A stretch of 64,000 nt of DNA, from positions 977,493 to 1,041,492 of the forward strand of contig JAQTUX010000001.1 of NCBI GenBank assembly GCA_028707125.1, in the 5' to 3' direction. The notes beneath the pieces are model-generated. The model saw nothing but the letters and a program-made list of their open reading frames with translations. It was not told where the DNA came from and made no database searches. Below are positions 16,818 to 46,491 of the stretch, piece after piece; positions within the stretch are counted from its first letter, which is position 1, and the number at the start of each line of letters is the position of its first letter. This DNA comes from Candidatus Omnitrophota bacterium (GTDB taxonomy: Bacteria; Omnitrophota; Gorgyraeia; Gygaellales; JAQTUX01). Position numbers and translations under genes: made by a program.

Positions 16818-16895
16818 CCCCACACTTACGTGTGGGGAATGGCAATCCTGAGCATCTTCGGATAGCCAGATGATTCTACACACGTAAGTGTGTAG
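16818..16895 (+). repeat. Family-C double-hairpin element, copy 1 (upstream of gatC)
   Basis: CCCCACAC-ttac-GTGTGGGG aatggcaatc...gatt CTACACAC-gtaa-GTGTGTAG agga. Conserved with the copies at 42846-42914 and 46472-46491. Confidence 0.8.
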
Positions 16896-16944
16896 AGGAA
16901 AAATCATTTACTTTTCGGTGGGTGGAGGATATAATTATAGAACC

Positions 16945-17232
16945 ATGATCGATAAGAAGACAGTAGAATATGTTGCCAATTTGGCGCGGATGGAATTGGA
17001 CGCGAAGGAGTTGGATATGCTCGCCAGGCAGCTTGAGGATATCCTGCGCTTTATAGACAAGTTAAAAAAAGTGGATGTAAGCGAAGTCAAACCCTCCAGC
17101 CATATTCTTCCTTTAGCCAACGTTTTTAGAGAGGATACAGTTAAGGAATCCCTCCCTCAGGAAGAGGCGCTCAAAAACACCGTGTTTAAGAAGGGCGGCC
17201 TGTTCGTAGTGCCCAGGATCATTGAGGAGTAA
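16945..17232 (+). CDS. gatC: Asp/Glu-tRNA(Asn/Gln) amidotransferase subunit C
   Basis: MIDKKTVEYVANLARMELDAKELDMLARQLEDIL is typical GatC (95 aa). The upstream extension to 16888 lies within the hairpin element. Confidence 0.8.
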   Translation: MIDKKTVEYVANLARMELDAKELDMLARQLEDILRFIDKLKKVDVSEVKPSSHILPLANVFREDTVKESLPQEEALKNTVFKKGGLFVVPRIIEE

Positions 17233-18671
17233 TGGAACTAAATCGCCTGACGATTCACGAACTCCTGGATAACAAAGAGATTGCCGCGCCTGATATCTTT
17301 GATTCTCTGGCCAGGAGGATAAAGGATGTAGAAGGTAAGGTTAAGGCGTTTGTAAGGGTTGACAGAACAGAGTCCGGCCAGCCGCGGCAAAATCCGCAAG
17401 CCGAGACCCTGTTAAAAGGCATACCGATAGTCATAAAGGATAACATCTGTGTTAAGGGCTCTCTCACAGAATGCTGCTCAAAGATATTGCAAGGATTCTC
17501 TCCGCCTTACGATGCTACAGTCATAACCAAATTGCGCGCGGCAGGGGCCGCGATCTACGGCTTGAGGGCCAATATGGATGAGTTTGCTTTTGGGTCATCC
17601 ACTGAGAATTCTTGTTTCGGCGCCTCGCGCAACCCGCATGACCCGTCCCGAGTTCCGGGCGGCTCATCAGGCGGTTCTGCCGCCTGCGTTGCCGCTGATG
17701 AAGCGATAGCCGCTTTGGGCTCTGACACAGGCGGCTCAATAAGACAGCCGGCTTCTTTTTGCGGGGTGGTGGGGCTTAAGCCGTCTTACGGCAGGGTATC
17801 CAGGTACGGATTGATCGCCTTTGCCTCAAGTTTAGACCAGATCGGCCCGATCACCAAGGATGTGCGCGACGCCGCCATACTGCTTAGCGTGATCGCCGGC
17901 TATGATGAAATGGATTCTACCAGCCAGAGGATCCCCGTGGCGGATTATACCAAGGCGTTGACAGGCGACATAAAGGGCCTTAAGATCGGCGTGCCTAAGG
18001 AGTATTTTGTTGAAGGTGTTGATAAAGAGGTCAAGGACGCGGCGCGGGAAGCGATAGAGGTCTTTAAAAAAAAGGGGGCTGTTGTCAGGGATATCTCGCT
18101 TAAATATACAGAGTACGCGGTGCCTACCTATTATATAATCGCCACTGCCGAGGCAAGCTCAAATCTGGCGAGATTTGACGCGGTGCAATACGGATACAGG
18201 CCAAAGCTTCCGGCTAAGGCGTCGCTTATAGAGATGTATAAGAAGGCGCGCGGTGAAGGTTTTGGCCAGGAGGCCAAGCGAAGGATAATACTCGGCACAT
18301 ACGTACTTTCTCATGGTTATTATGACGCGTATTATCTGCGGGCTCAGAAGGTGAGGACGTTGATAAAAGGCGATTTTGACCGGGCGCTTAATGAGGTTGA
18401 CTGCGTTATCACGCCTACATCTCCTTCCTGCGCGTTCAGGATCGGCGAGAAACTTGAAGACCCTCTTTCTATGTACCTGTCGGACATCTATACGATCTCC
18501 GCTAATCTCGCGGGTATTCCGGCCATATCCATACCCGCGGGAATGAGTAAAAGCGGCCTGCCCATAGGTATCCAGATATTGGGAAAGGCCTTTGATGAAG
18601 CGACGGTTCTAAGGGCCGCGCATAGTTTTGAACAGAACACCGAGTGGCATAAGATAAAGCCCAATCTTTAA
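17232..18671 (+). CDS. gatA: Glu-tRNA(Gln) amidotransferase subunit A
   Basis: Amidase signature GGSSGGSAACVAA and Ser-cisSer-Lys triad region. Confidence 0.9.
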   Translation: MELNRLTIHELLDNKEIAAPDIFDSLARRIKDVEGKVKAFVRVDRTESGQPRQNPQAETLLKGIPIVIKDNICVKGSLTECCSKILQGFSPPYDATVITKLRAAGAAIYGLRANMDEFAFGSSTENSCFGASRNPHDPSRVPGGSSGGSAACVAADEAIAALGSDTGGSIRQPASFCGVVGLKPSYGRVSRYGLIAFASSLDQIGPITKDVRDAAILLSVIAGYDEMDSTSQRIPVADYTKALTGDIKGLKIGVPKEYFVEGVDKEVKDAAREAIEVFKKKGAVVRDISLKYTEYAVPTYYIIATAEASSNLARFDAVQYGYRPKLPAKASLIEMYKKARGEGFGQEAKRRIILGTYVLSHGYYDAYYLRAQKVRTLIKGDFDRALNEVDCVITPTSPSCAFRIGEKLEDPLSMYLSDIYTISANLAGIPAISIPAGMSKSGLPIGIQILGKAFDEATVLRAAHSFEQNTEWHKIKPNL

Positions 18672-18672
18672 G

Positions 18673-20094
18673 ATGGAATACGAAACAGTCATAGGATTAG
18701 AAGTCCACGCGCAGCTAAAGACAAACACCAAGGCGTTCTGCGGCTGCAGGAATGAATTTGGTTTAGAGCCGAATTCTTCCGTGTGCCCTGTGTGCCTGGG
18801 GTTTCCCGGTTCGCTGCCGGTATTGAATAAGCGGGCTTTTGAGCTGGCCATTAAGACCGCGCTTGCCCTGGGCTGCCGGATACAGCCGCTTACAAAATTT
18901 GACAGGAAGAATTATTTTTATCCGGACCTGCCCAAGAATTTCCAGATATCTCAATACGACATGCCGCTTTCGCTGAATGGCTTCCTGCAGATAGAGGAAG
19001 AAGGATATAAGAAGAGGATCGGGATAAAACGCATACACCTGGAAGAGGACGCGGGCAAGCTTATGCACGAGGAAAACAACAGTTTAGTTGATTTTAACCG
19101 CGCGGGCACTCCCCTGATGGAGATCGTGAGCGAGCCGGATATGAGCTCGCCGCAGGAGGCATACGACTATCTGACCGCGCTCAAGCTTATATTGCAATAC
19201 CTGGAAGTGTCTGAGTGCAGCATGGAGAAAGGCACGTTGAGGTGCGACGCCAACATATCTTTACGCGAAAAAGGGGCTAAGGCGTTAGGGGTAAAAGCGG
19301 AATTAAAAAACCTCAACTCATTCAAGGCGGTCAAGGCCGCGCTGGAGTACGAAGAGATACGCCAGAGGGCTGCCCTTGAGGCAGGCGGGAAGATAATCCA
19401 GGAGACGCGCCTTTGGAATGACGCCTCTCTCAAGACGGTGCCGATGCGCAGCAAAGAGGAGGCGCAGGATTACAGGTATTTTCCCGAACCTGATCTGATC
19501 AGTTTTACGATCGGAGAAAAAGAGGTAGAGGGCATAAGGAAAACCATCCCGGAACTGCCGCTCAAGAGGAGGCAGAGATTCAGCGATGATTATGGCTTAA
19601 GCCGCTACGACGCGGGGGTGCTTATATCGGACAGGTTATTGGCGGATTATTTTGAGGGCTGCCTCAAGATAAGGAATGCCCCCAAGCCGATAGCGAACTG
19701 GCTCAACGGCCCGGTCATGTCCTTTATGAACGAGCGCGGCGCCTCTATCGCGGAACTGGGGATAAGGCAGGGCGATCTTATAGACCTGATCGCCCTGGTT
19801 GAAGACGGCACGATAAATAACCTGACCGCCAAGGATGTGCTCAGGGAAATGTTGCAGACAAAAAGCAGCCCCCGTGATATAATAAAACAGAAAGACCTGG
19901 CGCAGATCTCCGACAGCGGCGAATTGTCCGGCCTGATCGAAGAGGCGGTCAGAGAAAACGAGAAGACCGTAGCCGATTATAAGGCGGGGAAGGTATCGGC
20001 GCTTATGTTCCTTGTGGGACAGGTCATGCGCAAAAGCAAAGGCAAGGCCAACCCCAATCTATTGCAGGATATGATCAAAAGGAGATTGTCTTGA
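18673..20094 (+). CDS. gatB: Asp/Glu-tRNA(Asn/Gln) amidotransferase subunit B
   Basis: MEYETVIGLEVHAQLKTNTKAFCGC... is the GatB N-terminus, with a C-terminal YqeY-like domain. Confidence 0.9.
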   Translation: MEYETVIGLEVHAQLKTNTKAFCGCRNEFGLEPNSSVCPVCLGFPGSLPVLNKRAFELAIKTALALGCRIQPLTKFDRKNYFYPDLPKNFQISQYDMPLSLNGFLQIEEEGYKKRIGIKRIHLEEDAGKLMHEENNSLVDFNRAGTPLMEIVSEPDMSSPQEAYDYLTALKLILQYLEVSECSMEKGTLRCDANISLREKGAKALGVKAELKNLNSFKAVKAALEYEEIRQRAALEAGGKIIQETRLWNDASLKTVPMRSKEEAQDYRYFPEPDLISFTIGEKEVEGIRKTIPELPLKRRQRFSDDYGLSRYDAGVLISDRLLADYFEGCLKIRNAPKPIANWLNGPVMSFMNERGASIAELGIRQGDLIDLIALVEDGTINNLTAKDVLREMLQTKSSPRDIIKQKDLAQISDSGELSGLIEEAVRENEKTVADYKAGKVSALMFLVGQVMRKSKGKANPNLLQDMIKRRLS

Positions 20095-21389
20095 GGACCT
20101 CGAAGAAAATAATTATCGCCCTGTCACTAGGCATATTTCTGGCCGCGTTCATCGTGAACATATCTGAATCGGCAGCTAGGAAAAAAGACGAGCAGAAGGA
20201 CGAGCTTTTTAAGCAGGTTGAGATGTTCGCCGAGTCGTTAGGAATAATAAAGAAGGAATACACGGAAGAGCCGGATACAAAGAAACTGATCTACGGCGCG
20301 CTTCAAGGCATGCTGTCTTCCCTTGATACCCATAGCCAATTCCTTACGCCCGAAGATTACGCCGAGCTTAAGGTAGACACAACGGGAAAATTCGGAGGGC
20401 TGGGCATAGAGATAACGATGAAGGACGGCCTGCTTACCGTGGTTACGCCCATAGACGACACCCCCGCCTGGAAGGCGGGGATAAAGGCGGGAGACCGCAT
20501 AGTAAAGATCGACGGAGAGATCACCAAGGACATAACCTTGAGCGACGCGGTAAAGAAGTTAAGGGGCGAGCCGGGGAGCGAAGTAGCGCTTACGGTCTTA
20601 AGGGAAAATACCGCGAACCTGCTGGATTTTAAGATCGTAAGGAGCATTATAAAAGTAGAGGATATTAAAGACGCCTTGATCCTGGAGGATGGTGTTGCCT
20701 ACATACGTCTGGCGGAATTCAGGGAAAATACGCCCGCGGAGCTTGATAAGACGCTGACAAATCTACATAAGGAAGGGATGAAGAGCGTCATACTTGACCT
20801 GCGCAATAATCCCGGAGGCCTGCTTGACGCGGCGGTAAAGGTCGCGGAGCGTTTTCTTCCGGAGGGAAAGACCATCGTCTCCACAAAGGGCAGGGATGAG
20901 GCGCAGAATTCAGAGATGGTTTCAGGTAGCAGGGACTCTTATGGCATTCCCATGATCGTTCTGGTAAACGAGGGGTCGGCTTCCGGCAGCGAGATCGTGG
21001 CAGGCGCGCTTAAGGACCATAAAAGGGCGCTGATCGTAGGCGCCAAGACATTCGGCAAGGGCTCTGTCCAGACAGTCGTCCCGCTTAGCGACGGCTCCGC
21101 GCTAAAGCTTACCACAAGCTTGTATTTTACCCCTTCGGGCGAATCCATCCATAATAAAGGGGTCAGCCCTGATGTGGCTGTGGAGCAAGCAGCGCGGGAG
21201 CAGCCGGCCGCGCTGGAAGAGGAAGGCGTTAAGCCGGGTAAGGCGGAAGATATTTTTGACCAGATAGAGAAAGGGAATAAAGAACAGCAGGATAAAAAGA
21301 CAGTCATTGATTACAAGCTGGATAATCAGCTTATGCGCTCCGTTGATATACTTAAGGCGATCTCTATATATGAAGAAAAAAAATTATAA
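20091..21389 (+). CDS. ctpA: Carboxyl-terminal processing protease (S41 family, PDZ-containing)
   Basis: N-terminal signal anchor, a PDZ (GLGIEITMKDG...GDRIVKIDGE) and an S41 domain (NEGSASGSEIVAGALKD...GSVQ). TTG start with a GGAG RBS. Confidence 0.8.
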   Translation: MRTSKKIIIALSLGIFLAAFIVNISESAARKKDEQKDELFKQVEMFAESLGIIKKEYTEEPDTKKLIYGALQGMLSSLDTHSQFLTPEDYAELKVDTTGKFGGLGIEITMKDGLLTVVTPIDDTPAWKAGIKAGDRIVKIDGEITKDITLSDAVKKLRGEPGSEVALTVLRENTANLLDFKIVRSIIKVEDIKDALILEDGVAYIRLAEFRENTPAELDKTLTNLHKEGMKSVILDLRNNPGGLLDAAVKVAERFLPEGKTIVSTKGRDEAQNSEMVSGSRDSYGIPMIVLVNEGSASGSEIVAGALKDHKRALIVGAKTFGKGSVQTVVPLSDGSALKLTTSLYFTPSGESIHNKGVSPDVAVEQAAREQPAALEEEGVKPGKAEDIFDQIEKGNKEQQDKKTVIDYKLDNQLMRSVDILKAISIYEEKKL

Positions 21390-22185
21390 GCTTATAATAT
21401 TGATCCTTGCCATTGTTACGGCCGGGCAAGGGGTTTTTATCTGGAAGAGGTCGATTCCCAGGACGCCAAGGATGCCGCGTGTCTCCAGGAAAGAGGCCGC
21501 GCCAAAGGCGCTGATCGCCATTGTCATAGATGATTGGGGGTATAATCTTAATAACACGGAATTCATAAAGGAGACAAAAGAGCCCTTCTCTGTTTCTATC
21601 TTGCCCAATCTCCCTTTCTCAAAGACAATTTCGGAGGCCGCGTACAATAACGATAAGGAGATCCTGCTGCATCTGCCGCTTGAACCGCATAACGAGGAGA
21701 CGCTGGGCCTGGAGAAGAATACCATATTGACCACGATGAGCGAAAAGGAGGTCAGGGATATACTACGGGTAGCGCTTGAAGATATTTCTCACGCCAGGGG
21801 CGTATCCAATCATATGGGCTCCAAGGCCACTGAGGACGTGGACCTTATGAAGACGATATTTAACGAGATGAAAAGGAACGGCCTTTATTTTCTGGACAGC
21901 CTGGTCTCTCCCAATTCGGTTTGTTTTGACCTGGCCCATAAGATGGACGTGAAGTTTGCCAAGAGGAGCGTATTCCTGGACAATAAGGAAAACCCGGACT
22001 ATATCATAGGCCAGATAGGCAAACTCGTTAATAAGGCGAAGGTTTTCGGTTACGCCATAGGCATAGGCCATGACAGGCATTCTACCCTGGCCGTGCTTAA
22101 GAAGTACCTGCCGAAACTTACGGAGAGCGGATACAAGCTGGTTACGGTCTCCGAGCTTATAGAATATGCTGACTCTGGGGATTGA
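21370..22185 (+). CDS. Divergent polysaccharide deacetylase family protein (YibQ-like)
   Basis: N-terminal TM, then ALIAIVIDDWGYN...HLPLEP...GVSNHMGSKAT, the PF04748-type motifs. Confidence 0.65.
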   Translation: MKKKNYKLIILILAIVTAGQGVFIWKRSIPRTPRMPRVSRKEAAPKALIAIVIDDWGYNLNNTEFIKETKEPFSVSILPNLPFSKTISEAAYNNDKEILLHLPLEPHNEETLGLEKNTILTTMSEKEVRDILRVALEDISHARGVSNHMGSKATEDVDLMKTIFNEMKRNGLYFLDSLVSPNSVCFDLAHKMDVKFAKRSVFLDNKENPDYIIGQIGKLVNKAKVFGYAIGIGHDRHSTLAVLKKYLPKLTESGYKLVTVSELIEYADSGD

Positions 22186-23137: not shown

Positions 23138-23552
23138 TATTATGTTGAGGTTGGTATTGGCCGTGCTGTTCAGCGGGGCCATAGGGTTTGAAAGGCAGAT
23201 ACGGCACAGGGGCGCCGGGCTTCGCACGCATATATTAGTGTGCCTGGGCTCAACCCTGATAATGTTGACATCAATATACGTTTTTGATATATATAGAGGT
23301 GAGGCGGCGATAGATCCCGCGAGGATCGCCGCGGGCGTAGTCACAGGCATAGGTTTTCTCTGCGCCGGAACCATCATAAGATCCGGAGAGGCGATACGGG
23401 GATTGACTACGGCGACGAGCCTGTGGCTGGTTGCCGCGGTCGGCCTGGCCATCGGCATAGGATTTTACAGCGCCGCGTTCATGGCCACTGTTTTGGCTTT
23501 AGCCGTCCTTATGATGCTTCGCCGTTTTGAAGACAGGGTTTTTAGCAGATAA
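23121..23552 (+). CDS. MgtC/SapB family membrane protein
   Basis: LRLVLAVLFSGAIGFERQ...GLRTHILV...GIGFLCAG...GLTTAASLW is the MgtC signature. Confidence 0.7.
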   Translation: MLSQGDIMLRLVLAVLFSGAIGFERQIRHRGAGLRTHILVCLGSTLIMLTSIYVFDIYRGEAAIDPARIAAGVVTGIGFLCAGTIIRSGEAIRGLTTATSLWLVAAVGLAIGIGFYSAAFMATVLALAVLMMLRRFEDRVFSR

Positions 23553-23574
23553 ACCATTGAAGGAGGTGGTAAAG

Positions 23575-24075: not shown

Positions 24076-24080
24076 ATCAG

Positions 24081-24383: not shown

Positions 24384-24388
24384 TTTAA

Positions 24389-25458: not shown

Positions 25459-25469
25459 GAAGGAGCGTA

Positions 25470-26807: not shown

Positions 26808-26809
26808 TA

Positions 26810-28714: not shown

Positions 28715-28718
28715 GGAT

Positions 28719-35633: not shown

Positions 35634-35636
35634 GAT

Positions 35637-37615: not shown

Positions 37616-38468
37616 CCATAAAGGCGATTTCGGCCGCGTATTTATTCTCGCGGCATCAAAAGGCATGACCGGAGCCGGTATACTCTGCGCGAAGGCGGCA
37701 ATGCGCGCGGGGGCAGGGCTGGTGACTCTCGGTATACCGAAGACGCAATACCCGATCGTGGCAAAGAGGCTGCTTGAGGCAATGACAGCGCCTCTGGAAG
37801 ATACTGGCGATGGGTGTTTGGCGCTGAAGGCATTAAGCCGCGTAAGGGATTTTTTAAAAAGAACTGATGTGCTGGTAATAGGCCCCGGCCTTTCGCGGCA
37901 TAAACAGACCCAGCAGCTGATACGTAAAGTCATCGCTGAATTTAACGGCAGCATGGTTGTGGATGCCGATGCTATAAATGCTTTGGCAGGGCATCTTGAT
38001 CTATTGTCTGTCCTGAAGAGCCCGCGGTCAGTAATGCTGACGCCTCATCCCGGAGAGTTTTCCCGGCTCGCGCGTATGTCCGCGGCAAAACTGCGGAAAG
38101 ACAGAAAAATATCCGCCCGGTCTTTCGCGAAGAAATATAAGATCGTTCTGGTGCTAAAAGGGCATAACAGCGTGGTCTGCGGCGAAGGCCGCTGCTACAT
38201 AAATAGGACAGGCAACCCGGGGATGGCTACTGCCGGAAGCGGCGATGTGCTTAGCGGTATGGCGGCCGCGTTTCTCGCGCAGGGGCTGGATACGTTTGAG
38301 GCGGCAAAGACAGCCGTGTATCTGCACGGGCTGGCAGGGGATCTGGCAGCCAGGGAGAAAACGCAGATATCCTTGATAGCGTCCGATATTATAGAGAAGA
38401 TCCCGGAAGCGGTTAAACAAAGCGTAAAACGTAAAGCGAAAAGCGCAAAAGTAAAGTGTAAAATTTAA
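37575..38468 (+). CDS. nnrD: ADP-dependent (S)-NAD(P)H-hydrate dehydratase (YjeF C-terminal domain)
   Basis: HKGDFGRVFILAASKGMTGAGILCAKAA...GPGLS...LTPHPGEF...GNPGMATAGSGDVLSG are carbohydrate-kinase-like Nnr2 motifs. The last ~17 aa (KQSVKRKAKSAKVKCKI) are encoded by repeat A2. Confidence 0.8.
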   Translation: MRLPARLLRRNPNSHKGDFGRVFILAASKGMTGAGILCAKAAMRAGAGLVTLGIPKTQYPIVAKRLLEAMTAPLEDTGDGCLALKALSRVRDFLKRTDVLVIGPGLSRHKQTQQLIRKVIAEFNGSMVVDADAINALAGHLDLLSVLKSPRSVMLTPHPGEFSRLARMSAAKLRKDRKISARSFAKKYKIVLVLKGHNSVVCGEGRCYINRTGNPGMATAGSGDVLSGMAAAFLAQGLDTFEAAKTAVYLHGLAGDLAAREKTQISLIASDIIEKIPEAVKQSVKRKAKSAKVKCKI

Positions 38469-38534
38469 AACTATATAACAAAAACTTTAAACTTTACGTT
38501 TTGGTTTTACGCTTTGCGCTTTACACTTTTCGCT
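38421..38534. repeat. Family-A intergenic palindromic repeat, copy 2 (nnr-recX gap; left arm in-frame with the nnr 3' end)
   Basis: agcgtaaaacgtaaagcgaaaagcgcaaaagtaaagtgtaaaatttaaaactatataacaaaaactttaaactttacgttttggttttacgctttgcgctttacacttttcgct. Confidence 0.85.
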
Positions 38535-38536
38535 AT

Positions 38537-39007: not shown

Positions 39008-41619
39008 ATGCCGACGCACTAAGAGAAAAATTTCTGGAATTCTTCAAATCTAAGGGGCACGAGATAGCGCGAAGCGATTCGCTTGTGCCTAAAGACGACC
39101 CTACGGTGTTGTTCACCTCAGCCGGAATGAACCAGTTCAAGAAGAATTTCTTAGGCATAGACAAGCACCTGAAGCGCGCGGTCAGCTCTCAGAGGTGTTT
39201 AAGGACAGGCGATCTGGATAAGGTAGGAAAGACCGCGGGCCACCATACGTTCTTTGAGATGCTGGGTAATTTCTCTTTCGGCGATTATTTCAAGAAAGAG
39301 GCGATAAACTGGGCCTGGGAGTTTCTTACCAGGGAATTGAACATCCCCGATGATAAACTATGGGTGTCGGTATATAACGATGACACGGAGGCATATGAGG
39401 CCTGGTCAAAGGACATAAAGCTGCCTAAGCCGAGGATGATCAAATTGGGCGATAAAGAGAATTTCTGGCCTTCAGAGGCAAAGCAGAAAGGCCCTAACGG
39501 CCCTTGCGGCCCCTGCTCGGAAATATTTTACGACCGGGGAAAAGGCGTTGGCTGCGGTGAGCCGGTATGCGACCCGAGCTGTGACTGTGGAAGGTTCGTA
39601 GAGATATGGAATCTCGTTTTTACTCAGTTCAACAGGAAAGAGGGTGGGGCGCTTGAGCCCCTGCCTCAAAAAAACATAGATACGGGTATGGGGCTGGAAC
39701 GCTTGACCGCGGTAATGCAGGGTAAGGCCAACAATTTTGAGACCGAACTTTTTCAGCCGATCATAAAGGAAATTATAGCTAAAATAGGGGGCAGGCCTAA
39801 GAAGGAACTGCTCTATGCTATAGCCGATCATATAAGGGCAGCCGTATTCGCCATTGCCGACGGAGTTATCCCCTCAAATGAGGAGAGGGGTTATGTTGTC
39901 AGAAAACTTATCAGGAAGGCTGTTTATGATCTGCGGAAACTGGGAACTAATGATAAATTTCTTTATAAGCTTGTTTATCCAGTTATTGAGACAATGAAGA
40001 TCGCTTATCCAGAATTGGGTAAGCGACACGAGAATATTACGCAGATTATTCTTGCTGAAGAGGAAAAATATTTACAGATTCTGGAGTCTGTGGCTGGAAT
40101 ATGTTTTGATAAGTTTGCCGGTATAGATAAAATGGATAACAAAAAAATCGGCAGGGTTAGTTTCGACCTTTATGACACTCACGGCATACCCATAGAACTT
40201 ACAGAGGAGTGGCTTAAAGGACACGGTTATAGCTTCTCCAAGGATGAGTTCGAAAGGAATCTCTCGCGGCAGCGCGAGCAATCGCGCGGCAAAAGCACGA
40301 TGAAAGGCGATGTATTCTCGGTTGCCGGGCTTAAAATAGATACAGCGGCAACTGTGTTTAAAGGTTATGATTCCCTTGAATCAGAGGCAAAGATATTAAA
40401 GATATTTAAAGGCGCGGATGAAATGAAGTCCGCCTCTGAAGGCGATGAGGTTGCTGTCGTATTGGACAAAACGCCGTTTTATCCTGAATCAGGAGGACAG
40501 GTTGCCGATAGGGGAAGCATCCTCAAGAAGGGCTGCCTGTTTGAGGTTAAGGATACGCAAAGGACGGGTTCTGTGATAGTCCATTACGGCGTAGTAGCAA
40601 AGGGCGCCTTCAAAGAAAAGGATAAGGTTTCGGCTAACGTAGATAAACAAAGGCGGCTTGCTATTGCCAGGAACCATACCGCGACTCATATGCTCCAGTC
40701 CGCTCTCAGGCAGGTGCTGGGAGAACATATCCAGCAGCAGGGCTCGTTAGTGGCAGAGGACAGGCTGAGGTTTGATTTTACCCATTTTAAGGCCGTAAGC
40801 CCCGAAGAGATCTCCAGGATAGAGGAGATCGTGAATAAAATGATCATTGATAACGAAGTATTGACGGCCAGGCAGATGCCGCTGTCCGAGGCAAAGAAGA
40901 CAGGGGCGCTGGCATTTTTCGGCGAAAAATATTCAGATAAGGTGCGGGTCGTGGCGATAGGCGGTTTTTCCCGGGAACTCTGCGGCGGCACGCATCTTGG
41001 TTCAACCGGGCAGATCGGCTTATTTAAGATCGTTTCCGAGTCATCCATAGCGCAGGGCGTACGGCGCATAGAGGCGCAGACCGGGGCCGCCGCTTATAAC
41101 AACATCCAACAGGGCGGCGCTGTCCTTAGGGAGCTTTCAGGCATTTTAAAAGTTCCTGCCGAGGAGATAGTAAGCCAGGTGGAAAAGCTGAACAACCGGC
41201 TCAGGGATTTAAACAGCAAGTTGGATTCCTGCCGGTTGGAGGCGTTCAGGTCGGCGATCGGCGATATGATCAAAACGGGCATTAAGATAGGCGGTATCTC
41301 GTTCATATGCCGGCGCGTAGAACAGGCAGATATGGAGTTATTAAGGCCTATGGCGGATATGTTGAGGCAGAAAGCCGATAAAACGGTATTGCTGCTTGCC
41401 TCTGTTCTGGAAGACAGGGCCGCGCTCGTTGTGGCGTTAAGCAATGATATGAAGGATACGCCGCTGGACGCCTCAAAGATAATAAAGGATATTGCCGCGG
41501 TATTGGGCGGCAGCGGCGGCGGCCGTAAGGACTTCGCGCAGGCAGGCTCACGCGATATCAAAGCGCTTGAGGAAGCGATCGCCAGAGCGCCGGAAATAAT
41601 AAAGGGATATTTAAAATGA
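39004..41619 (+). CDS. alaS: Alanine--tRNA ligase
   Basis: 871 aa with a class II core (FTSAGMNQFK), an editing-domain HxxxH/CxxxH region (HTATHML...CGGTH) and a C-terminal DHHA1. Confidence 0.95.
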   Translation: MNADALREKFLEFFKSKGHEIARSDSLVPKDDPTVLFTSAGMNQFKKNFLGIDKHLKRAVSSQRCLRTGDLDKVGKTAGHHTFFEMLGNFSFGDYFKKEAINWAWEFLTRELNIPDDKLWVSVYNDDTEAYEAWSKDIKLPKPRMIKLGDKENFWPSEAKQKGPNGPCGPCSEIFYDRGKGVGCGEPVCDPSCDCGRFVEIWNLVFTQFNRKEGGALEPLPQKNIDTGMGLERLTAVMQGKANNFETELFQPIIKEIIAKIGGRPKKELLYAIADHIRAAVFAIADGVIPSNEERGYVVRKLIRKAVYDLRKLGTNDKFLYKLVYPVIETMKIAYPELGKRHENITQIILAEEEKYLQILESVAGICFDKFAGIDKMDNKKIGRVSFDLYDTHGIPIELTEEWLKGHGYSFSKDEFERNLSRQREQSRGKSTMKGDVFSVAGLKIDTAATVFKGYDSLESEAKILKIFKGADEMKSASEGDEVAVVLDKTPFYPESGGQVADRGSILKKGCLFEVKDTQRTGSVIVHYGVVAKGAFKEKDKVSANVDKQRRLAIARNHTATHMLQSALRQVLGEHIQQQGSLVAEDRLRFDFTHFKAVSPEEISRIEEIVNKMIIDNEVLTARQMPLSEAKKTGALAFFGEKYSDKVRVVAIGGFSRELCGGTHLGSTGQIGLFKIVSESSIAQGVRRIEAQTGAAAYNNIQQGGAVLRELSGILKVPAEEIVSQVEKLNNRLRDLNSKLDSCRLEAFRSAIGDMIKTGIKIGGISFICRRVEQADMELLRPMADMLRQKADKTVLLLASVLEDRAALVVALSNDMKDTPLDASKIIKDIAAVLGGSGGGRKDFAQAGSRDIKALEEAIARAPEIIKGYLK

Positions 41620-42839
41620 AGATAATACGCAGATACAACAGGGAACTTGAGAAGATCTACAGCCGTAATCTGATAAGGCAGAAGTCCATGCAGGAGCGCG
41701 TGCGCAAGATAATAGACGACGTCAGGCTGAACGGGGACGACGCGCTGGCAAAATATACGCGTAAATTTGACAAGGTAAAACTGCTGCCCAGGCAATTCAG
41801 GGTAGGGCCGCTGGAGATAAGCGGCGCTTATCAGAATATAAACCGGGATTTTGTTTCTAATCTCAAACTTATAATAGAGAACATAAACCGGTTCTACAAG
41901 AGGCAGATAAGAAAGAAGTGGAAGATCAAGGATTCCGACGGCGTAGAGTTGGGAGAAAAGATAGAGCCGATAGAACGCGTAGGTATTTACATACCGGCAG
42001 GCACAGCCCCGCTTGTCTCAACGGTCTATATGACAGCCGTGCCAGCGCGCATAGCAGGGGTAAAGGACATAGCGTTATTTACTCCTCCGGATGAGAACGG
42101 GAACGTTAATCCTCACATACTTGTAGTCGCGGACCTGCTTAAGGTCAATGAGATCTACAAGGTCGGGGGGGCGCAGGCGATCGCCGCCGCCAGTTTTGGC
42201 ACAAGGACCATACCGAAGGTGGATAAGATCGTAGGCCCGGGCAATGCTTACGTAACAGAGGCAAAGAGGCAGTTGTTCGGCTATGTGAATATCGATATGC
42301 TGGCAGGGCCGACAGAACTGGTTGTGATCGCCAACAGGTTCAGTAATCCCAAGTTCGTTATTGCCGACCTTAAATCGCAGATAGAGCATTCCGGCGGCAT
42401 GTCAATACTTATTACTACAAGCAGGGATCTGGCGAAGACGGCCGCGGCGCAGTTAGACGCGAAAGGGGCGATAATCCTGACAAAGAACCTGGCTGAGGCG
42501 GCAGAGATATCTAACCGCATAGCGCCGGAACACCTGGAGATCATGGTAAACAATCCCAAAAAGATCCTGAAGCTTATAAAGAACGCCGGGGCGGTATTCC
42601 TGGGGGCATATAGCCCTGTTTCGGTAGGGGATTATGTAGCCGGGCCCAGCCACGTATTGCCGACCGCCGGCTCTGCCCGGTTCTTTTCGGGGTTGTCTTT
42701 AAGCGACTTTACGAAGTCAATACACATAATTTCTTACTCCAGGAAAGCGCTTGAGGCGATAAGGCAGCCGCTTGAGGCGATCGCCGGAATTGAAAAATTG
42801 GAAAAACACATTGAGTCGGTAAAGGCGAGGTTCGAGTAG
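41616..42839 (+). CDS. hisD: Histidinol dehydrogenase
   Basis: 407 aa, HisD family (…IPAGTAPLVSTVYMTAVPARIAGV...). Confidence 0.85.
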   Translation: MKIIRRYNRELEKIYSRNLIRQKSMQERVRKIIDDVRLNGDDALAKYTRKFDKVKLLPRQFRVGPLEISGAYQNINRDFVSNLKLIIENINRFYKRQIRKKWKIKDSDGVELGEKIEPIERVGIYIPAGTAPLVSTVYMTAVPARIAGVKDIALFTPPDENGNVNPHILVVADLLKVNEIYKVGGAQAIAAASFGTRTIPKVDKIVGPGNAYVTEAKRQLFGYVNIDMLAGPTELVVIANRFSNPKFVIADLKSQIEHSGGMSILITTSRDLAKTAAAQLDAKGAIILTKNLAEAAEISNRIAPEHLEIMVNNPKKILKLIKNAGAVFLGAYSPVSVGDYVAGPSHVLPTAGSARFFSGLSLSDFTKSIHIISYSRKALEAIRQPLEAIAGIEKLEKHIESVKARFE

Positions 42840-42845
42840 AAGAGA

Positions 42846-42914
42846 CCCCACACTTACGTGTGGGGAATGACAATCTAAGCATAGCCAAAGGATTCTACAC
42901 ACGTAAGTGTGTAG
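42846..42914 (+). repeat. Family-C double-hairpin element, copy 2 (hisD-hisB gap)
   Basis: CCCCACAC-ttac-GTGTGGGG aatgacaatctaagcatagccaaaggatt CTACACAC-gtaa-GTGTGTAG agga. Confidence 0.8.
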
Positions 42915-42934
42915 AGGACACTGAAGGTGGAAAG

Positions 42935-43546
42935 ATGAAAAAACGTAGCGCAGAAGTAAAAAGAAAAACAAAAGAAACTGATATTACTGTTAAATTAAAT
43001 ATCGACGGTTCTGGCAAATCTAAAATAAATACTGGCATAGGCATATTAGACCACATGCTGGAATTATTCGCTTTCCACGGATTATTTGATTTGGAAATCA
43101 TGGCTAAAGGTGATTTGAACATAGATATACATCATACTAATGAAGACGTTGGCATCGTATTGGGAGATGCTTTTAAAAAGGCATTAGGAAATAAAGAAGG
43201 TATCAAAAGATCTGGTTCCAGTTCATGGCCGATGGAAGATGTAGTCGCCAATGTGGCGGTGGATATCAGCGGGAGAGGATTTTTTGAAAAGATAACCAGG
43301 GCGACGATCGGATATCCAGAACCCAAAGAAGAAGATGGATACTCTTATTCTTACGCTAATCATTTCTTTGAATCGTTTGCAAAAAGAATGGGAATGAATT
43401 TAAATATAAAATTGGATAGCCAGAATCCGGATTTGCATACTAATTTGGAACCTATTTTTAAGGCCTTCGGTGCGGCGCTGGACCAGGCTACTCAGATAGA
43501 CCCGCGCCGGAAGGGAGTACCCTCAACGAAGGGAATTATAGATTGA
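42935..43546 (+). CDS. hisB: Imidazoleglycerol-phosphate dehydratase
   Basis: KRKTKETDITVKLNIDGSG...GIGILDHMLELFAFHG...DIHHTNEDVGIVLG carries the IGPD His motifs. It is conspicuously AT-rich relative to its neighbours. Confidence 0.85.
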   Translation: MKKRSAEVKRKTKETDITVKLNIDGSGKSKINTGIGILDHMLELFAFHGLFDLEIMAKGDLNIDIHHTNEDVGIVLGDAFKKALGNKEGIKRSGSSSWPMEDVVANVAVDISGRGFFEKITRATIGYPEPKEEDGYSYSYANHFFESFAKRMGMNLNIKLDSQNPDLHTNLEPIFKAFGAALDQATQIDPRRKGVPSTKGIID

Positions 43547-43547
43547 G

Positions 43548-44168
43548 ATGGTAGCGTTGATCGATTACGGTTCAGGCAACTTAAGAAGCGTGCAAAAGGC
43601 CTGCGAGCGCGTCGGTATGCGGGTAAAGGTAACGCAGAGCGGCGAGGATATAAAAAGCGCGGATAGGCTTATACTGCCAGGCGTCGGCTCCTTTGACGAT
43701 TCCATGGTAACGCTGGAGAAGTTAAAACTCTTATCCTCTATCCGATCATTCATAAAGTCCGCGAGGCCGTATCTGGGCATATGTTTAGGCATGCAGATAC
43801 TGTTTGAGCGCAGCGAAGAAGGCAGGCAGGTAAAAGGGCTGGGGGTCTTTGAGGGAGTAGTAAAGAAATTCATGCCGGCAGGAGGCATTAAAGTCCCCCA
43901 TATGGGCTGGAACAGGGTCGCGCGCCCCTCTCGTCCGGTCGATACCTCAGAAAGATTGTTCAAAGGCATAGCAGACGGCTCGTTCTTTTACTTCTGCCAC
44001 TCTTATTACCCTGAACCGAAGGATGATTCAATATCCGCGCTTACCTGCAGTTACGGCCTTGATTTCGCGGCGATGGTCTGCCGCGGGAACACCTTCGGCG
44101 TGCAATTCCACCCGGAGAAAAGCCAGGAGTTAGGATTGCAGGTTCTGCGCAATTTTGCTGAATTATGA
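43548..44168 (+). CDS. hisH: Imidazole glycerol phosphate synthase, glutaminase subunit
   Basis: MVALIDYGSGNLRSV...LPGVGSF...GICLGMQ is the class I GATase triad. Confidence 0.9.
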   Translation: MVALIDYGSGNLRSVQKACERVGMRVKVTQSGEDIKSADRLILPGVGSFDDSMVTLEKLKLLSSIRSFIKSARPYLGICLGMQILFERSEEGRQVKGLGVFEGVVKKFMPAGGIKVPHMGWNRVARPSRPVDTSERLFKGIADGSFFYFCHSYYPEPKDDSISALTCSYGLDFAAMVCRGNTFGVQFHPEKSQELGLQVLRNFAEL

Positions 44169-44899
44169 TAATAATCCCCGCGATTGACCTGAGAAGCGGT
44201 AAGGTAGTCCGCCTTAAGCAGGGCAGATTTGAGGACGAGACGGTATATTCCGACGACCCTCTTGGCACAGCCGGGAAATGGATCAAGGAGGGGGCTCAGA
44301 TAATCCACGTTGTCGACCTGGATGCCGCCTTGACCGGAAAGCCGAAAAATATATCCATTATTGAAGAGATAGTCGGCAATGTGAAGGCAAAAATAGAATT
44401 AGGGGGAGGATTAAGAGAGATCCCCTTGATAGAACGGCTTATAAATCTCGGGGTCGAGAGAGTGGTGATCGGTACAAAGGCGGTCGTGGATGAGGCGTTC
44501 CTTGATGAGGCGCTGCGCAGGTTTTCGGATAAAATACTGGTAAGCATAGACGTAAGGAATAAATTTGTCGCCACTTCCGGCTGGAAGGGCGTTTCGGGCC
44601 TGCAGCCCGTAGAGTTCGCCTCTTTACTGGCGAAGAAAGGCGTAAAAAGGGTTATATATACGGATATATCCAGGGACGGGATGCTCGCGGGGCCCAACTT
44701 AGAAGGGCTTCTGGATATACTTAATAAGGTGGATATCTCCGTCATTGTATCAGGCGGAGTATCTTCACTGGATGATATAGAAAAAATAAGGCGGATGAAT
44801 AAAAAGAACATAGAAGGCGTGATCATAGGCAAGGCGCTTTATGAAAATAAGTTCACTCTTAAAGAAGCCATGGAAACGGCGAAGAAAGGAGAGGTGTAG
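44165..44899 (+). CDS. hisA: ProFAR isomerase
   Basis: MIIIPAIDLRSGKVVRLKQG... is the HisA TIM barrel. Confidence 0.9.
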   Translation: MIIIPAIDLRSGKVVRLKQGRFEDETVYSDDPLGTAGKWIKEGAQIIHVVDLDAALTGKPKNISIIEEIVGNVKAKIELGGGLREIPLIERLINLGVERVVIGTKAVVDEAFLDEALRRFSDKILVSIDVRNKFVATSGWKGVSGLQPVEFASLLAKKGVKRVIYTDISRDGMLAGPNLEGLLDILNKVDISVIVSGGVSSLDDIEKIRRMNKKNIEGVIIGKALYENKFTLKEAMETAKKGEV

Positions 44900-44900
44900 T

Positions 44901-45371
44901 ATGCTCAGGACATTCGCGGTAGTTTTGATCGTGTCGGCATTGGCTCTGTCCGGCTGCCAGACCCTTGGCGCGGGGAAGGCAAAGGTTGATTCTCAGATCC
45001 AGGATCTGCAGAATCAGGTCTCTGTCATGGAGATACGCCTGAAAGAAAATGAGGAAGAATTGCTCAAGACAAGGAAGTCCGTGCAGCAGTTGGTATCGGA
45101 GAATGAAGACCTGAGGGCGGGCCTTTCGGACATGAAGAAGAAGGCGTCAAAATCCTCTGTCGCGGAATTCCGCAAACCGTTGTCAAAACAGGTGCAGATC
45201 GCCTTGAGGAACGCCGGCTTTAATCCGGGGCCGATCGACGGAAAGATGGGGGTCCAGACCAGAAATGCCATAAGGGCGTTTCAGAAGGCAAACCGCCTTC
45301 CCGTAAGCGGCGATGTGGATTATAATACCTGGCAGGCCTTAAAGGAATTCCTTTACAAAAAACAGAAATAA
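44901..45371 (+). CDS. Lipoprotein with a coiled-coil and a C-terminal peptidoglycan-binding (PG_binding_1-like) domain
   Basis: RBS AAGGAGAGG. N-terminus [19 protein letters not shown] (lipobox), a coiled-coil, then ...[48 protein letters not shown]. Inserted between hisA and hisF. Confidence 0.65.
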
Positions 45372-45372
45372 T

Positions 45373-46134
45373 ATGCTGGCTAAGCGTATAATACCCTGCC
45401 TGGACGTGAAGGACGGCAGGGTCGTAAAGGGCGTTAAATTCATCGGGCTTAAGGACGCGGGAGACCCTGTTGAGGCGGCGCTTGTTTATGACTCACAACA
45501 GGCAGATGAGCTCGTCTTTCTTGACATTACCGCCAGTTTTGAGAAACGCAAGATCATTCTTGATGTCGTCAAAAAGACCGCGGAATCGGTTTTTATGCCG
45601 CTGACAGTCGGCGGCGGCATAAAGGATATCTACGACATACGCAACCTTCTCAATGCCGGCGCCGATAAGGTCTCCATCAATACTTCGGCCGTAAAAGACC
45701 CCGTCCTCATAAGGGAAGCGGCGGATAAATTCGGCAGTCAATGTATCGTTATAGCCATAGACGCGAAAAGAACGCCGGATAAAAATGGCTGGAAGGTGTT
45801 TATTGACGGTGGAAGGACTGCCACAGACAAGGACGCGTTGAAATGGTCCGAAGAGGCCGCGGCGCTTGGAGCCGGAGAGATCCTGTTGACAAGCATGGAT
45901 AGAGACGGCACCAAAGACGGCTATGACTTAGAATTGACGCGGCGCGTTGCCGAAACAGTGGCTATTCCCGTGATCGCCTCCGGCGGCGCGGGAAAACTTG
46001 AGCACTTCGCGGAAGTACTTACGGAAGGCAGGGCAGACGCGGCCCTTGCCGCCTCGTTGTTCCATTACGGCGAATTCAGCATAAAGCAGGTAAAGGAATA
46101 CCTGAAAACCAAAGGGATAGAGGTAAGAATATGA
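45373..46134 (+). CDS. hisF: Imidazole glycerol phosphate synthase, cyclase subunit
   Basis: [23 protein letters not shown]... is the HisF TIM barrel. Confidence 0.9.
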
Positions 46135-46469
46135 AGTTTAAGTTAAGCGATTTGAAGTTTGATGTTTCGGGATTGATCCCGGTAATAATACAGGACTACA
46201 AAACTAAAGAAGTGCTGATGGTCGCCTATATGAACAGGGAATCACTAAGGCGGACTATCCGGCTGGGAAAGACATGTTTCTGGTCGCGTTCACGCAAGAA
46301 ATACTGGGTAAAGGGAGAGACCTCGGGACATTTTCAATATGTGAAGTCAATCGCTTATGACTGTGATGCCGACGCGTTATTGATAAGGGTGAGACAGGTT
46401 GGCGTTGCCTGCCACACAGGAAATAGAAGTTGTTTTTATAGAAAGATGGGGAATATCAAACCACGATGA
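46131..46469 (+). CDS. hisI: Phosphoribosyl-AMP cyclohydrolase
   Basis: 112 aa with GLIPVIIQD...CDADALLI..V...G.ACHTG, the HisI zinc motifs. Confidence 0.85.
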
Positions 46470-46471
46470 TA

Positions 46472-46491
46472 CTACACACGTAAGTGTGTAG
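46472..46491 (+). repeat. Family-C element, copy 3 (second hairpin only; hisI-trpE gap)
   Basis: CTACACAC-gtaa-GTGTGTAG followed by aggaaactt ATG (trpE). The upstream ggggaat remnant of the first half lies in the hisI 3' end. Confidence 0.7.

Follow-up and report, generated by a model that had tools for sequence, protein, structure and literature searches.

Immediately upstream of gatC, hisB and trpE, a 64,000-nucleotide stretch of a Candidatus Omnitrophota genome (hereafter the window, meaning the whole stretch that was analysed) carries copies of a double-hairpin element. The question that this locus raises is whether the element serves the amino-acid and aminoacyl-tRNA operons that it precedes here, or belongs to something more general. 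An earlier note on this DNA had made the pathway link, had called the element MITE-like, and had offered as candidate roles a stabilising or processing stem-loop abutting the ribosome binding site, an intercistronic attenuator, or paired operators; overall, that interpretation is partly supported by the analysis described here.

Copies of the element in the window

The repeat at gatC, hisB and trpE is real: its core, CACACNNNNGTGTG (CACAC-N4-GTGTG), occurs five times in the window (positions 16821, 16879, 42849, 42898 and 46475) and not once in 100 shuffles. There are two full copies, at the groEL-gatC and hisD-hisB junctions, and one copy at the hisI-trpE junction that consists of hairpin 2 (HP2) only; Pfam identifies the genes as GatC, Histidinol_dh followed by IGPD, and PRA-CH followed by anthranilate synthase I. 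The features are as follows.

16818-16837, + strand: copy 1, hairpin 1 (HP1), CCCCACACTTACGTGTGGGG, read as CCCCACAC-UUAC-GUGUGGGG, with A on its 5' side and AAUG on its 3' side
16838-16875, + strand: copy 1, spacer of 38 nt, the same as that of copy 2 apart from an insertion of 8-9 nt (CTTCGGAT)
16876-16895, + strand: copy 1, HP2, CTACACACGTAAGTGTGTAG, read as CUACACAC-GUAA-GUGUGUAG
16896-16899, + strand: copy 1, AGGA tail; the gatC ATG is at 16945
42846-42865, + strand: copy 2, HP1, starting 6 nt past the hisD stop codon (42837-42839)
42866-42894, + strand: copy 2, spacer of 29 nt
42895-42914, + strand: copy 2, HP2; AGGA at 42915-42918, hisB ATG at 42935
46448-46471, + strand: copy 3, remnant of the HP1 3' end and spacer, GGGGAAT...CCACGATGATA
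46472-46491, + strand: copy 3, HP2; AGGA at 46492-46495, trpE ATG at 46501

In good agreement with the earlier description, the 14-nt cores of the window's two hairpins are exact reverse complements of each other, and HP2 is separated from the start codon by 49 (gatC), 20 (hisB) and 9 nt (trpE); the extra insert in the copy 1 spacer is present too, but measures 8-9 nt rather than 6. Also as described, copy 3 keeps GGGGAAT (46448-46454) within the 3' end of hisI; of the copy 1/2 spacer it retains just the 3' end, CCA-GATGAT, and its remnant codes for the final HisI residues (MGNIKPR) and the TGA stop codon. Since the AGGA of copy 3 lies 5 nt upstream of the trpE ATG, it is a candidate for a working Shine-Dalgarno (SD) sequence. 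For copies 1 and 2 the SD closest to the start codon is not the element's AGGA: hisB has an SD-like GGTGGA of its own, and a promoter-like site (16907-16935) lies between copy 1 HP2 and gatC. Covariance model R1 scores copy 1 at 74.8 bits (16812-16903, + strand) versus 44.7 bits on the - strand, copy 2 at 74.9 bits, and copy 3 as a weak full-length match (34.5 bits, 46439-46499). A search of the window for further diverged copies found none, and no direct repeats indicative of target-site duplication were seen flanking copies 1-3. The window also carries a second intercistronic repeat family.

Structure, covariation and placement

Every hairpin combines an 8-bp stem with a tetraloop, and the folding z-scores of the two full copies are -5.2 and -5.9. 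A single genome-collection scan with the 20-nt hairpin pattern yielded 78 loci, about 60 of which show the same two-module layout. The MAGs with this element represent at least 25 species and belong to three PVC phyla, namely Omnitrophota, Planctomycetota (Phycisphaerae/Sedimentisphaerales) and Auribacterota. The module consensus sequences are A-CC(N6)-UNAC-(N6')GG-AAUG for HP1 and (G)AUA-C(N7)-GNRA-(N7')G-AGG(A) for HP2. The modules are arranged as HP1-linker-HP2 (with a linker that is most often the 8-nt AAUGGAUA), as HP2-HP1, alone or in tandem, and HP1-HP2 spacers range from 3 to ~100 nt.

The stems covary strongly. In an alignment of 30 sequences, compensatory changes on both sides are found in 11 of the 16 stem pairs, including 7 of the 8 in HP2, and 98.5% of the cells are paired, versus 19-63% when the partners are slid. 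At the same sites model R1 gives 55-85 bits on the sense strand versus 35-50 bits on the antisense strand; the wobble-pair asymmetry (8 G.U vs 6 A.C) is uninformative on the functional strand. HP2 varies independently of HP1 in other genomes, as in CUGCAGGC-GUAA-GCCUGCAG beside an unchanged HP1, and terminal inverted repeats therefore do not define the element as the MITE comparison had implied. Complementarity between the UUAC and GUAA loops does not covary (L009 pairs UCAC loops with GUAA), and the alternative 2:3 pairing is not conserved where HP2 differs from HP1.

The placement of the element is equally regular: copies are tightly bound to gene boundaries and to gene orientation rather than randomly located. 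They occupy short spacers between co-directional genes, plus some 5' leaders; 49 units share the orientation of the genes on either side, and 3 run opposite to it. HP1 usually starts 0-16 nt past the upstream stop codon (at most 16 nt in 27/41 cases), HP2 is followed by the next start codon within 25 nt in 25/44 cases and within 60 nt in 38/44, and the distance from the end of a unit to the start codon is usually 6-55 nt. The median co-directional gap is 74 nt where the element is present and 17 nt where it is absent.

These data bear directly on the proposal that the element is a gene-specific cis-regulator of amino-acid or aminoacyl-tRNA operons, acting either as a leader of the attenuator or riboswitch kind or as a pair of palindromic operators bound by a dimeric repressor. 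The window copies do precede gatC, hisB and trpE, and trp, his and ilv genes recur downstream of other loci. However, the 59 downstream proteins represent 87 unrelated Pfam families, including V-ATPase subunits, glycosyltransferases, radical SAM enzymes and CorC, and the same his-trp operon lacks the element in five syntenic relatives, so the pathway link does not hold. Neither a sense-strand U-tract, nor a conserved alternative pairing, nor a leader peptide or ORF was found at the element, which speaks against the intercistronic attenuator, and Rfam returned no family match, riboswitch and leader families included. The groEL terminator (16714-16745) is of the canonical U-tract type used by this organism; since its terminators carry U-tracts, the U-tract-less HP1 and HP2 are not sense-strand terminators. 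The stems, moreover, change sequence yet keep pairing, which is the opposite of what is expected of a sequence-specific double-stranded DNA site. We thus regard a gene-specific regulator as extremely improbable. Two specific candidates were rejected: a gene-family leader (attenuator, riboswitch or T-box), with no single pathway and no terminator/antiterminator or SD-sequestering alternative, and a palindromic operator, the half-site sequence not being conserved when 11/16 pairs change on both sides.

Turnover, constraint and related repeat families

In the closest syntenic relative (L082; HisD 82% identical) the gene order of the his-trp operon is the same, and no copy is present anywhere in the corresponding 21 kb; four further syntenic Omnitrophota loci have no copy either. 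The L082 hisI-trpE junction consists of the hisI TAA, 1 nt and the trpE ATG, and its HisI tail differs (CFYR-EIKNRAAKDV, then stop); in the window, unlike in L082, the inserted piece of copy 3 supplies both the hisI stop codon and the AGGA. Since this close relative lacks the element there, it is dispensable at those junctions. Conversely, elements in L068 and L059 occupy junctions whose genes overlap in the window, L062 and L077 show a precise deletion of HP2, and one short-read contig from the same organism as the window terminates inside HP1. The spacer sequence shared by copies 1 and 2 is confined to them, occurring in no fetched locus of other genomes. The family is gained and lost in a REP/BIME- or MITE-type manner and is unrelated to any pathway, which bears out the mobile, repeat-like behaviour suggested earlier. 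At the same junctions of the his operon, palindromic inserts of other kinds are present in other Omnitrophota.

Where the element is retained, it can be conserved above the synonymous level. At the trpF-trpB junction of four species, 56/58 element columns (97%) are identical, compared with 51-61% of third codon positions and 62-66% of the flanking spacer; the identity exceeds even that of first and second codon positions. Gene conversion among copies could be a source of their likeness.

REPs are present in tens to hundreds of extragenic copies per genome, and the RAYT (Y1 transposase) gene is usually flanked by its cognate REPs. The element resembles REP/BIME sequences in its 20-40 nt palindromic units with 6-9 bp stems (here 8 bp, with 4-nt loops), in the joining of two unit types across short conserved linkers as inverted dimers, mosaics and tandems, in its location in spacers of unidirectional genes near the upstream stop codon, and in its variable presence between relatives; like them, it is probably co-transcribed and may stabilise mRNA. 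It differs in having perfect stems with tetraloops where REP stems are bulged, a near-invariant sense orientation to genes, an SD-like AGG(A) tail at the 3' end, an apparently low copy number, and one family common to three phyla. It also lacks the unpaired tag of the GTAG- and CGTC-tagged REP families (PMC3733652): its flanks are A before and AAUG after HP1, and GAUA before and AGG after HP2, while CTAC and GTAG in the window are paired inside the HP2 stem. Finally, no RAYT gene was found nearby; a tblastn search for E. coli RayT, of low power because it covered the window and 0.65 Mb of loci around the elements rather than whole genomes, gave a best E-value of 0.41 (an OPT transporter).

Could the element, then, be purely selfish REP/MITE-like DNA with no RNA-level function, its hairpins being single-stranded DNA recognition structures for a RAYT/IS200-like or other transposase, and its copies persisting only where harmless, that is, in sense orientation inside operons and with their own SD? 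The presence/absence pattern between syntenic relatives, the spacer private to the window copies, the contig break inside HP1, the BIME-like mosaics (HP1-HP2, HP2-HP1, solo, tandem), and the existence of both other palindromic inserts at his-operon junctions and a second repeat family in the window are all consistent with this reading. Inverting the element would yield a hairpin followed by a T-run, a terminator-like form that explains the orientation bias on the selfish reading; indeed, both the orientation bias and the high conservation can be explained without RNA function. Related units of the Acido-Lenti-1 type bear an opposite-strand NTAG tag, as do GTAG-type REPs (PMC3733652), but this tag occurs only on such units outside the PVC group, and an unpaired tag, be it GTAG or CGTC, is absent from the PVC modules. 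The lack of a RayT homologue (a low-power test) and of a visible target-site duplication, an exact-match count of only ~6-8 loci per MAG in the collection scan (the window has 3 copies in 64 kb), far below that of classical REPs, and the 97% identity at an orthologous junction, suggestive of constraint, also argue against a purely selfish element, which we consider possible but rather doubtful.

MITEs such as Correia/NEMIS, RUP, BOX and ERIC are co-transcribed and alter mRNA processing. Like them, the element is small, non-coding, dispersed and inserted beside genes, and its ends in the window are inverted copies of each other, a relation that is lost in other genomes. Unlike MITEs, it shows no target-site duplication or parent (autonomous) insertion sequence, and its functional units are two local hairpins rather than one long one.

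Also among the closest described systems is Acido-Lenti-1 (Rfam RF01687), an orphan two-hairpin motif (Weinberg et al. 2010; PMC2864571). Its first hairpin follows the HP1 design, CC(N6)-UNAC-(N6')GG with an 8-bp stem, and several loci of Acidobacteriota, Bacteroidota and Owenweeksia have the same 20-mer as HP1, CCCCACACUUACGUGUGGGG. Both have two hairpins 8-12 nt apart and many, often clustered copies per genome, and neither has a known function. They differ in the linker (CUAAUnUAUGcC in Acido-Lenti-1 versus AAUGGAUA, i.e. AAUG...GAUA, in the element), in the second hairpin (5 bp with a 3-nt loop versus 8 bp with a GNRA loop), and in that Acido-Lenti-1 clusters occur in either orientation, unattached to start codons. 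At its gathering score of 37 bits the RF01687 model found no match in the window, L045, L072, L035 or L030, nor at E<=10 in window positions 42800-42960, while the control L039 scored 53.7 bits; model R1 in turn detects only HP1 in Acido-Lenti-1 loci.

The shared HP1 raises the further possibility that a dedicated, conserved RNA-binding protein or endoribonuclease recognises the element, as part of a sequence-specific system of operon processing common to the element and to Acido-Lenti-1 in Acidobacteriota, Bacteroidota and Lentisphaerota. The loops and flanks (UNAC, GNRA, AAUG, GAUA, AGG) are conserved beyond the needs of stability, the identical 20-nt HP1 lies within bona fide Acido-Lenti-1 matches (L039), and the CACAC/GUGUG stem motif recurs across phyla, a conservation that exceeds what simple end-capping would require. 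Set against this, the analysis turned up no candidate protein, free covariation of the stems is seen in some lineages, the UUAC/GUAA loop complementarity does not covary (L009), and the identity of HP1 across phyla owes something to the search pattern, which selected for exact matches. We consider such a system improbable.

A proposed role in operon punctuation

The reading that we favour, and hold to be probable, is that the element is a dispersed, modular, REP/BIME-like repeat that is co-transcribed and whose hairpins cap cistron ends and present the SD, i.e. a form of operon punctuation. Of the roles proposed earlier, the stabilising or processing stem-loop abutting the ribosome binding site is still the best mechanistic reading, one that we infer from structure and position. 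Against it weigh the lack of the element at the same junctions of L082, the AGGA of copies 1 and 2, which is not the SD closest to the start codon, and a stem conservation across phyla greater than end-capping alone calls for. Intercistronic stabilisers (Rhodobacter puf, the E. coli malEFG REP and the pap operons) likewise place stable hairpins between cistrons, in a position to shield the preceding segment at its 3' end and the following one at its 5' end; these are single-locus structures, whereas the element is one family at many unrelated junctions and genomes, with processing as a putative property.

According to this punctuation model, the element would be transcribed within the operon mRNA, always in sense orientation, and the transcript would form two tetraloop hairpins of great stability. 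The first, HP1, lying a few nucleotides past the stop codon of the preceding cistron, would cap that cistron at its 3' end; HP2, directly 5' of the SD-like AGGA, would do the same for the 5' end of the following cistron and may also keep the ribosome binding site clear of competing pairing. The A/U-rich single-stranded linker between them is a candidate endonuclease site. Acting in this way, the punctuation module would set both segmental mRNA stability and the translation of the downstream cistron.

Copies in the window and their surroundings

The 64-kb window contains five occurrences of the pattern CACACNNNNGTGTG, as against none in 100 dinucleotide-preserving shuffles, and on reading the sequence we recover two full copies and one partial copy of a double-hairpin element, just as the earlier note had described; neither a hairpin scan nor a covariance-model search located additional copies in the window. 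The first hairpin (HP1) reads CCCCACAC-TTAC-GTGTGGGG and the second (HP2) CTACACAC-GTAA-GTGTGTAG. Each folds into an 8-bp stem with a tetraloop, and the full copies have folding z-scores of -5.2 and -5.9 relative to shuffles.

Table. Copies of the element in the window (window coordinates, forward strand)
Copy 1: HP1 16818-16837; HP2 16876-16895; AGGA 16896-16899; gatC ATG 16945
Copy 2: HP1 42846-42865; HP2 42895-42914; AGGA 42915-42918; hisB ATG 42935
Copy 3: HP1 absent, GGGGAAT remnant 46448-46454; HP2 46472-46491; AGGA 46492-46495; trpE ATG 46501

By Pfam assignment, copy 1 lies between groEL and gatC-gatA, copy 2 between alaS-hisD and a run of genes starting with hisB-hisH, and copy 3 between hisI and trpE. 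Copy 2 begins 6 nt downstream of the hisD stop codon (42837-42839). The insert previously noted in the spacer of copy 1 is present, and measures 8-9 nt rather than 6. Copy 1 is located downstream of a canonical groEL terminator (16714-16745) and of a promoter-like site (TTGATC-18-TATTAT, 16750-16779), the latter followed by a GC-rich hairpin, GGCAGCAGGGCCCTGCTGCC, at 16782-16801. A second, better promoter-like site (TTTACT-17-TATAAT, 16907-16935) lies between HP2 and the gatC ATG and would give rise to a nearly leaderless gatC mRNA without the element.

Copy 3 replaces the tail of HisI. In relatives, hisI and trpE abut or overlap. Alignment of window positions 46440-46469 with positions 14880-14925 of L082, the closest syntenic relative, shows that element-derived sequence encodes the final seven residues and the stop codon of the window HisI (CFYR-MGNIKPR* versus CFYR-EIKNRAAKDV* in L082). 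The same insert provides the AGGA that stands 5 nt 5' of the trpE ATG.

A further family of intercistronic repeats is present in the window, its unit being an inverted repeat, long and imperfect, of ~110 nt (GCGTAAAACGTAAAGCGAAAAGCGCAAAAC ... GTTTTACGCTTTGCGCTTTAC). Its three copies (10718-10831, 38421-38534 and 58383-58496) are 96-97% identical, each filling the gap between two co-directional genes, and a partial copy (47991-48021) lies downstream of trpE. Elsewhere, a 39-nt direct repeat (1002-1040 and 1217-1255, 87% identical) is found shortly past the tRNA genes at 905-978 and 1107-1180, and RNase P RNA maps to 2422-2878.

Spread, structure and orientation across genomes

A scan of one genome per GTDB species with the pattern CYMCACACTTACGTGTGKRG, matching both hairpins on either strand, yielded 78 loci, ~60 of which have the same architecture once oriented; the species of the window was not in the representative-genome or JGI contig collections scanned, and exact matches to its HisB and HisH are not on record. 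The window HisD is 100% identical to an NCBI protein of a 'Candidatus Omnitrophica bacterium' MAG, which identifies the window as Omnitrophota DNA. Planctomycete MAGs among the ~60 loci are labelled Phycisphaerae, Sedimentisphaerales, Planctomycetia, Pirellulales, Planctomycetales or Planctomycetota, and the carriers further include eight Omnitrophota MAGs, one of them a single-cell genome, and Candidatus Tritonobacter (Auribacterota, PVC group). Some of the NCBI taxonomic labels are inconsistent, since trp operon DNA is ~85-90% identical across four loci (L003, L010, L026 and L019) labelled Phycisphaerae, Pirellulales and Sedimentisphaerales. The commonest form of what we call the PVC element is aaA-CCCCACAC-UUAC-GUGUGGGG-AAUGGAUA-CCACACAC-GU(A/G)A-GUGUGUGG-AGGa. 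Across loci the two hairpins are separated by 3 to ~100 nt, and alternative arrangements include HP2-HP1 order, solo modules and tandem HP2 (in L017, three copies repeating every 36 nt). In metagenomes, a window-specific HP2 20-mer matched one 3-kb contig (L079, a solo HP2 between two genes) and a 24-mer matched none; viral contigs (IMG/VR) contained no element.

Three related observations were made in passing. In the MAG CAZVRU01 (L007, two copies in L013, and L068) the element forms part of a longer repeat, with a CCGCCTGCGGCGG hairpin and AAGTAAAAGGAAACATTTTA upstream, and AAGATAAAAGGAAAGATTAGAGGTTCGACTTGT followed by reiterated AACTTGTAAC units downstream. In Roseiflexaceae (L001 5729-5748, L027 15-34) the 14-nt core hairpin stands ~20 nt upstream of the 16S rRNA 5' end (AGAGTTTGATCCTGGCTCAG), a context unrelated to the PVC element. 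At a Pyrinomonadaceae locus (L005 5340-5670 and 6557-6670) there is a tandem array that repeats every ~70 nt, an HP1-like hairpin (CCCCACAC/CCCCAAAC stems, then GATTTG) alternating in it with a conserved G-rich segment.

In an alignment of 30 sequences, standard pairs occupy 98.5% of stem cells, a percentage inflated by the hairpin filter used to choose the seed sequences, which leaves compensatory changes unaffected. Two-sided changes are present in 11 of the 16 stem pairs, including seven of the eight in HP2, and these compensatory changes support the stems. HP2 stems occur as CCACACAC/GUGUGUGG, CUACAGGC/GCCUGUAG, CUGCAGGC/GCCUGCAG, CUGCGCAC/GUGCGCAG and CCCCAUAC/GUAUGGGG, and HP1 stems vary as CCCCACGC/GCGUGGGG and CCCCAUGC/GCAUGGGG. 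With partners slid as a control, pairing fell to 19-63% and covariation almost disappeared. On the evidence of this alignment, the hairpins are selected as structures. Conservation outside the stems is confined to the UNAC and GNRA loops and to the flanks, A and AAUG around HP1 and (G)AUA and AG(G) around HP2.

This pattern of variation bears on several readings, some of them put forward in the earlier note. Because HP2 changes independently of HP1 in other genomes, terminal inverted repeats are not a general feature of the family. Attenuator-like 1:2/2:3/3:4 pairing and a long HP1:HP2 duplex (an RNase III-type substrate) are possible where HP2 is close to an HP1 reverse complement and impossible where it is CUGCAGGC or CUGCGCAC, and both were rejected as general mechanisms. 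The proposed paired operators are ruled out as well, since covariation of the stems excludes sequence-specific double-stranded DNA sites. A riboswitch reading was likewise rejected. Other candidates fared no better: the complementary UUAC and GUAA loops, which could kiss, do not covary; the GGA that CsrA-type sites in the linker call for is unconserved (GAUGAUU, AAGGAUU and GAUGAUA in the window copies); and a small ORF starting from the conserved AAUG keeps neither frame nor length. Counts of G.U versus A.C wobbles did not discriminate between the strands.

The family does have a defined strand, given that R1, a covariance model of the element, scores sites at 55-85 bits on one strand but at 35-50 bits on the opposite one. 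Using crude gene calls, we found 49 units co-oriented with both neighbours versus three opposed to both (binomial p ~1e-11). By the same crude calls, in 27 of 41 cases no more than 16 nt, and often just 2 nt, separate the upstream stop codon from the start of HP1, and the distance from the end of HP2 to the next start codon is at most 25 nt in 25 of 44 cases and at most 60 nt in 38. The median co-directional gap is 74 nt where the element is present versus 17 nt where it is not; the element is essentially the whole intercistronic spacer. Not all copies are intercistronic, copy 1 following the groEL terminator and one copy in L013 lying in a divergent region, and enrichment in co-directional (31/378) over convergent or divergent gaps (2/36 and 1/34) is not significant against background gene organisation. 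The orientation bias would also follow from the main rival to an RNA-level role, namely that the only use of the hairpins is to a transposition machinery with single-stranded DNA as its substrate: the inverse orientation would put a hairpin and a T-run inside operons, leaving the sense orientation as the only one tolerated.

The 59 downstream proteins have hits to 87 Pfam families and show no pathway specificity, which contradicts the suggested link to amino-acid operons. Amino-acid genes do occur downstream elsewhere (TrpB, TrpD, HisI and IlvN), alongside V-type ATPase subunits A, B, C and D, GT4 glycosyltransferases, CorC/CNNM, radical SAM and ferredoxin-type proteins. That the window copies share an amino-acid theme is coincidental, reflecting where this genome carries them.

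Turnover and relation to known repeat families

L082, the closest relative retrieved, has a HisD 82% identical to that of the window and the same gene order (alaS-hisD-hisB-hisH-hisA-x-hisF-hisI-trpE-rpsP-yajC-secDF-mfd), and lacks the element throughout 21 kb: its hisD and hisB are separated by 59 nt of unrelated sequence, and its hisI TAA by 1 nt from the trpE ATG. The element is also absent from four further syntenic Omnitrophota loci, two of which have other palindromic inserts at the same junctions. Conversely, two loci syntenic with the window (L068 and L059) carry elements at junctions where the window genes overlap. In L062 and L077, HP2 has been deleted between similar GTGTGG arms. 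Copies 1 and 2 have in common a spacer found in no other genome, which points to spread within the lineage. A 3.6-kb Logan short-read contig of the window's organism ends inside HP1, the kind of break that repeats typically cause in assemblies. Four species have the element at an orthologous trpF-trpB junction, and there it is identical in 56 of 58 columns, as compared to 51-61% of third codon positions, 89-94% of first and second positions and 62-66% of the flanking spacer; such conservation points to purifying selection or else to homogenisation of the copies.

The unrelated inserts at his-operon junctions of other Omnitrophota (L087 11228-11346, 11950-12192, 12802-12895 and 15233-15356; L089 14896-14995) consist of long GC-rich hairpins and a different double hairpin. 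Intercistronic palindromic repeats thus look like a general habit of this phylum.

No Rfam 15 family matches the element at the gathering threshold, and the hits at E<=10 were only noise, among them RT-6 at 14 bits and some miRNA hairpins. An identical 20-nt HP1 is nevertheless found inside genuine matches to Acido-Lenti-1 (RF01687) in Acidobacteriota, Owenweeksia and Bacteroidales loci (53.7 bits in L039). Acido-Lenti-1 was described from 89 copies in Acidobacteria and Lentisphaerae, with function unknown (Weinberg et al., PMC2864571); Rhodopirellula-1 (Weinberg 2010) proved on comparison to be a different motif. Acido-Lenti-1 and the PVC element both have a UNAC loop on an 8-bp CC...GG stem, a second hairpin at a distance of 8-12 nt, and numerous copies in clusters, but the linker and second hairpin of Acido-Lenti-1 differ and it has no fixed orientation relative to genes. 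Clustered units in both orientations were seen in Owenweeksia (L014 2952-3081, L028, L057, L065), Acidobacteriota (L039, L048, L078) and Bacteroidales (L008, L020, L029). On the reverse strand these units read NTAG plus CCCCACAC-GTAA-GTGTGGGG (NTAG-CCCC...GGGG) and resemble GTAG-tagged REPs from the catalogue of Di Nocera et al. (PMC3733652); rather than a small RNA gene, Acido-Lenti-1 may be a family of REPs.

The PVC element itself shares with REP/BIME repeats its unit size, inverted two-type dimers with linkers, mosaic arrangements, proximity to upstream stop codons and turnover. It differs in having no unpaired tag, and a low-powered search of 0.65 Mb revealed no RayT homologue. We therefore name it a REP/BIME-like intercistronic palindromic repeat without filing it as a member. 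Notable among its traits are a distribution across phyla, a strict orientation, an end that carries an SD and the connection with an orphan Rfam motif. Our literature search found no description of the core 14-mers or of such a repeat in Omnitrophota or Planctomycetes.

Proposed role and implications

The results establish a repeat with a defined strand and structural constraint, mobile or prone to turnover, which fills the spacers between cistrons and has an SD-like end; the MITE-like character and possible stabiliser role raised in the earlier note are the parts of its interpretation that have held. In the RNA-level reading that we favour, the element would be transcribed together with the operon. 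HP1 would lie so near the stop codon that the terminating ribosome must melt it, and on refolding would act as a 3' cap for the upstream mRNA segment. The A/U-rich linker would be a likely endonuclease site, and HP2 would serve as a 5' cap and a rigid insulator keeping AGGA single-stranded for the downstream cistron. A bolder version, which we regard as improbable, is that HP1 and HP2 are recognition hairpins of a putative dedicated RNA-binding protein or endoribonuclease that cuts and caps polycistronic mRNAs at defined junctions, a sequence-coded operon punctuation shared by PVC phyla and evolutionarily linked, via the HP1 design, to Acido-Lenti-1 of Acidobacteriota, Bacteroidota and Lentisphaerota. 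Were this so, Acido-Lenti-1 would gain a testable function.

For annotation, the element family accounts for contig breaks and odd C-terminal tails, as in HisI here, and should be masked ahead of regulatory-RNA searches. Even as selfish DNA only, it would be a new REP-like family, unusually widespread and with a strong orientation, in which to study how operons tolerate repeats of this kind. If the RNA-level reading is true, the mostly uncultivated Omnitrophota, Phycisphaerae and Auribacterota would separate their cistrons with one portable two-hairpin cassette that would protect cistron ends and supply a ribosome binding site, nature's equivalent of the synthetic 'insulator' parts with which operons are designed, and Acido-Lenti-1, an orphan since 2010, would have its first functional lead.
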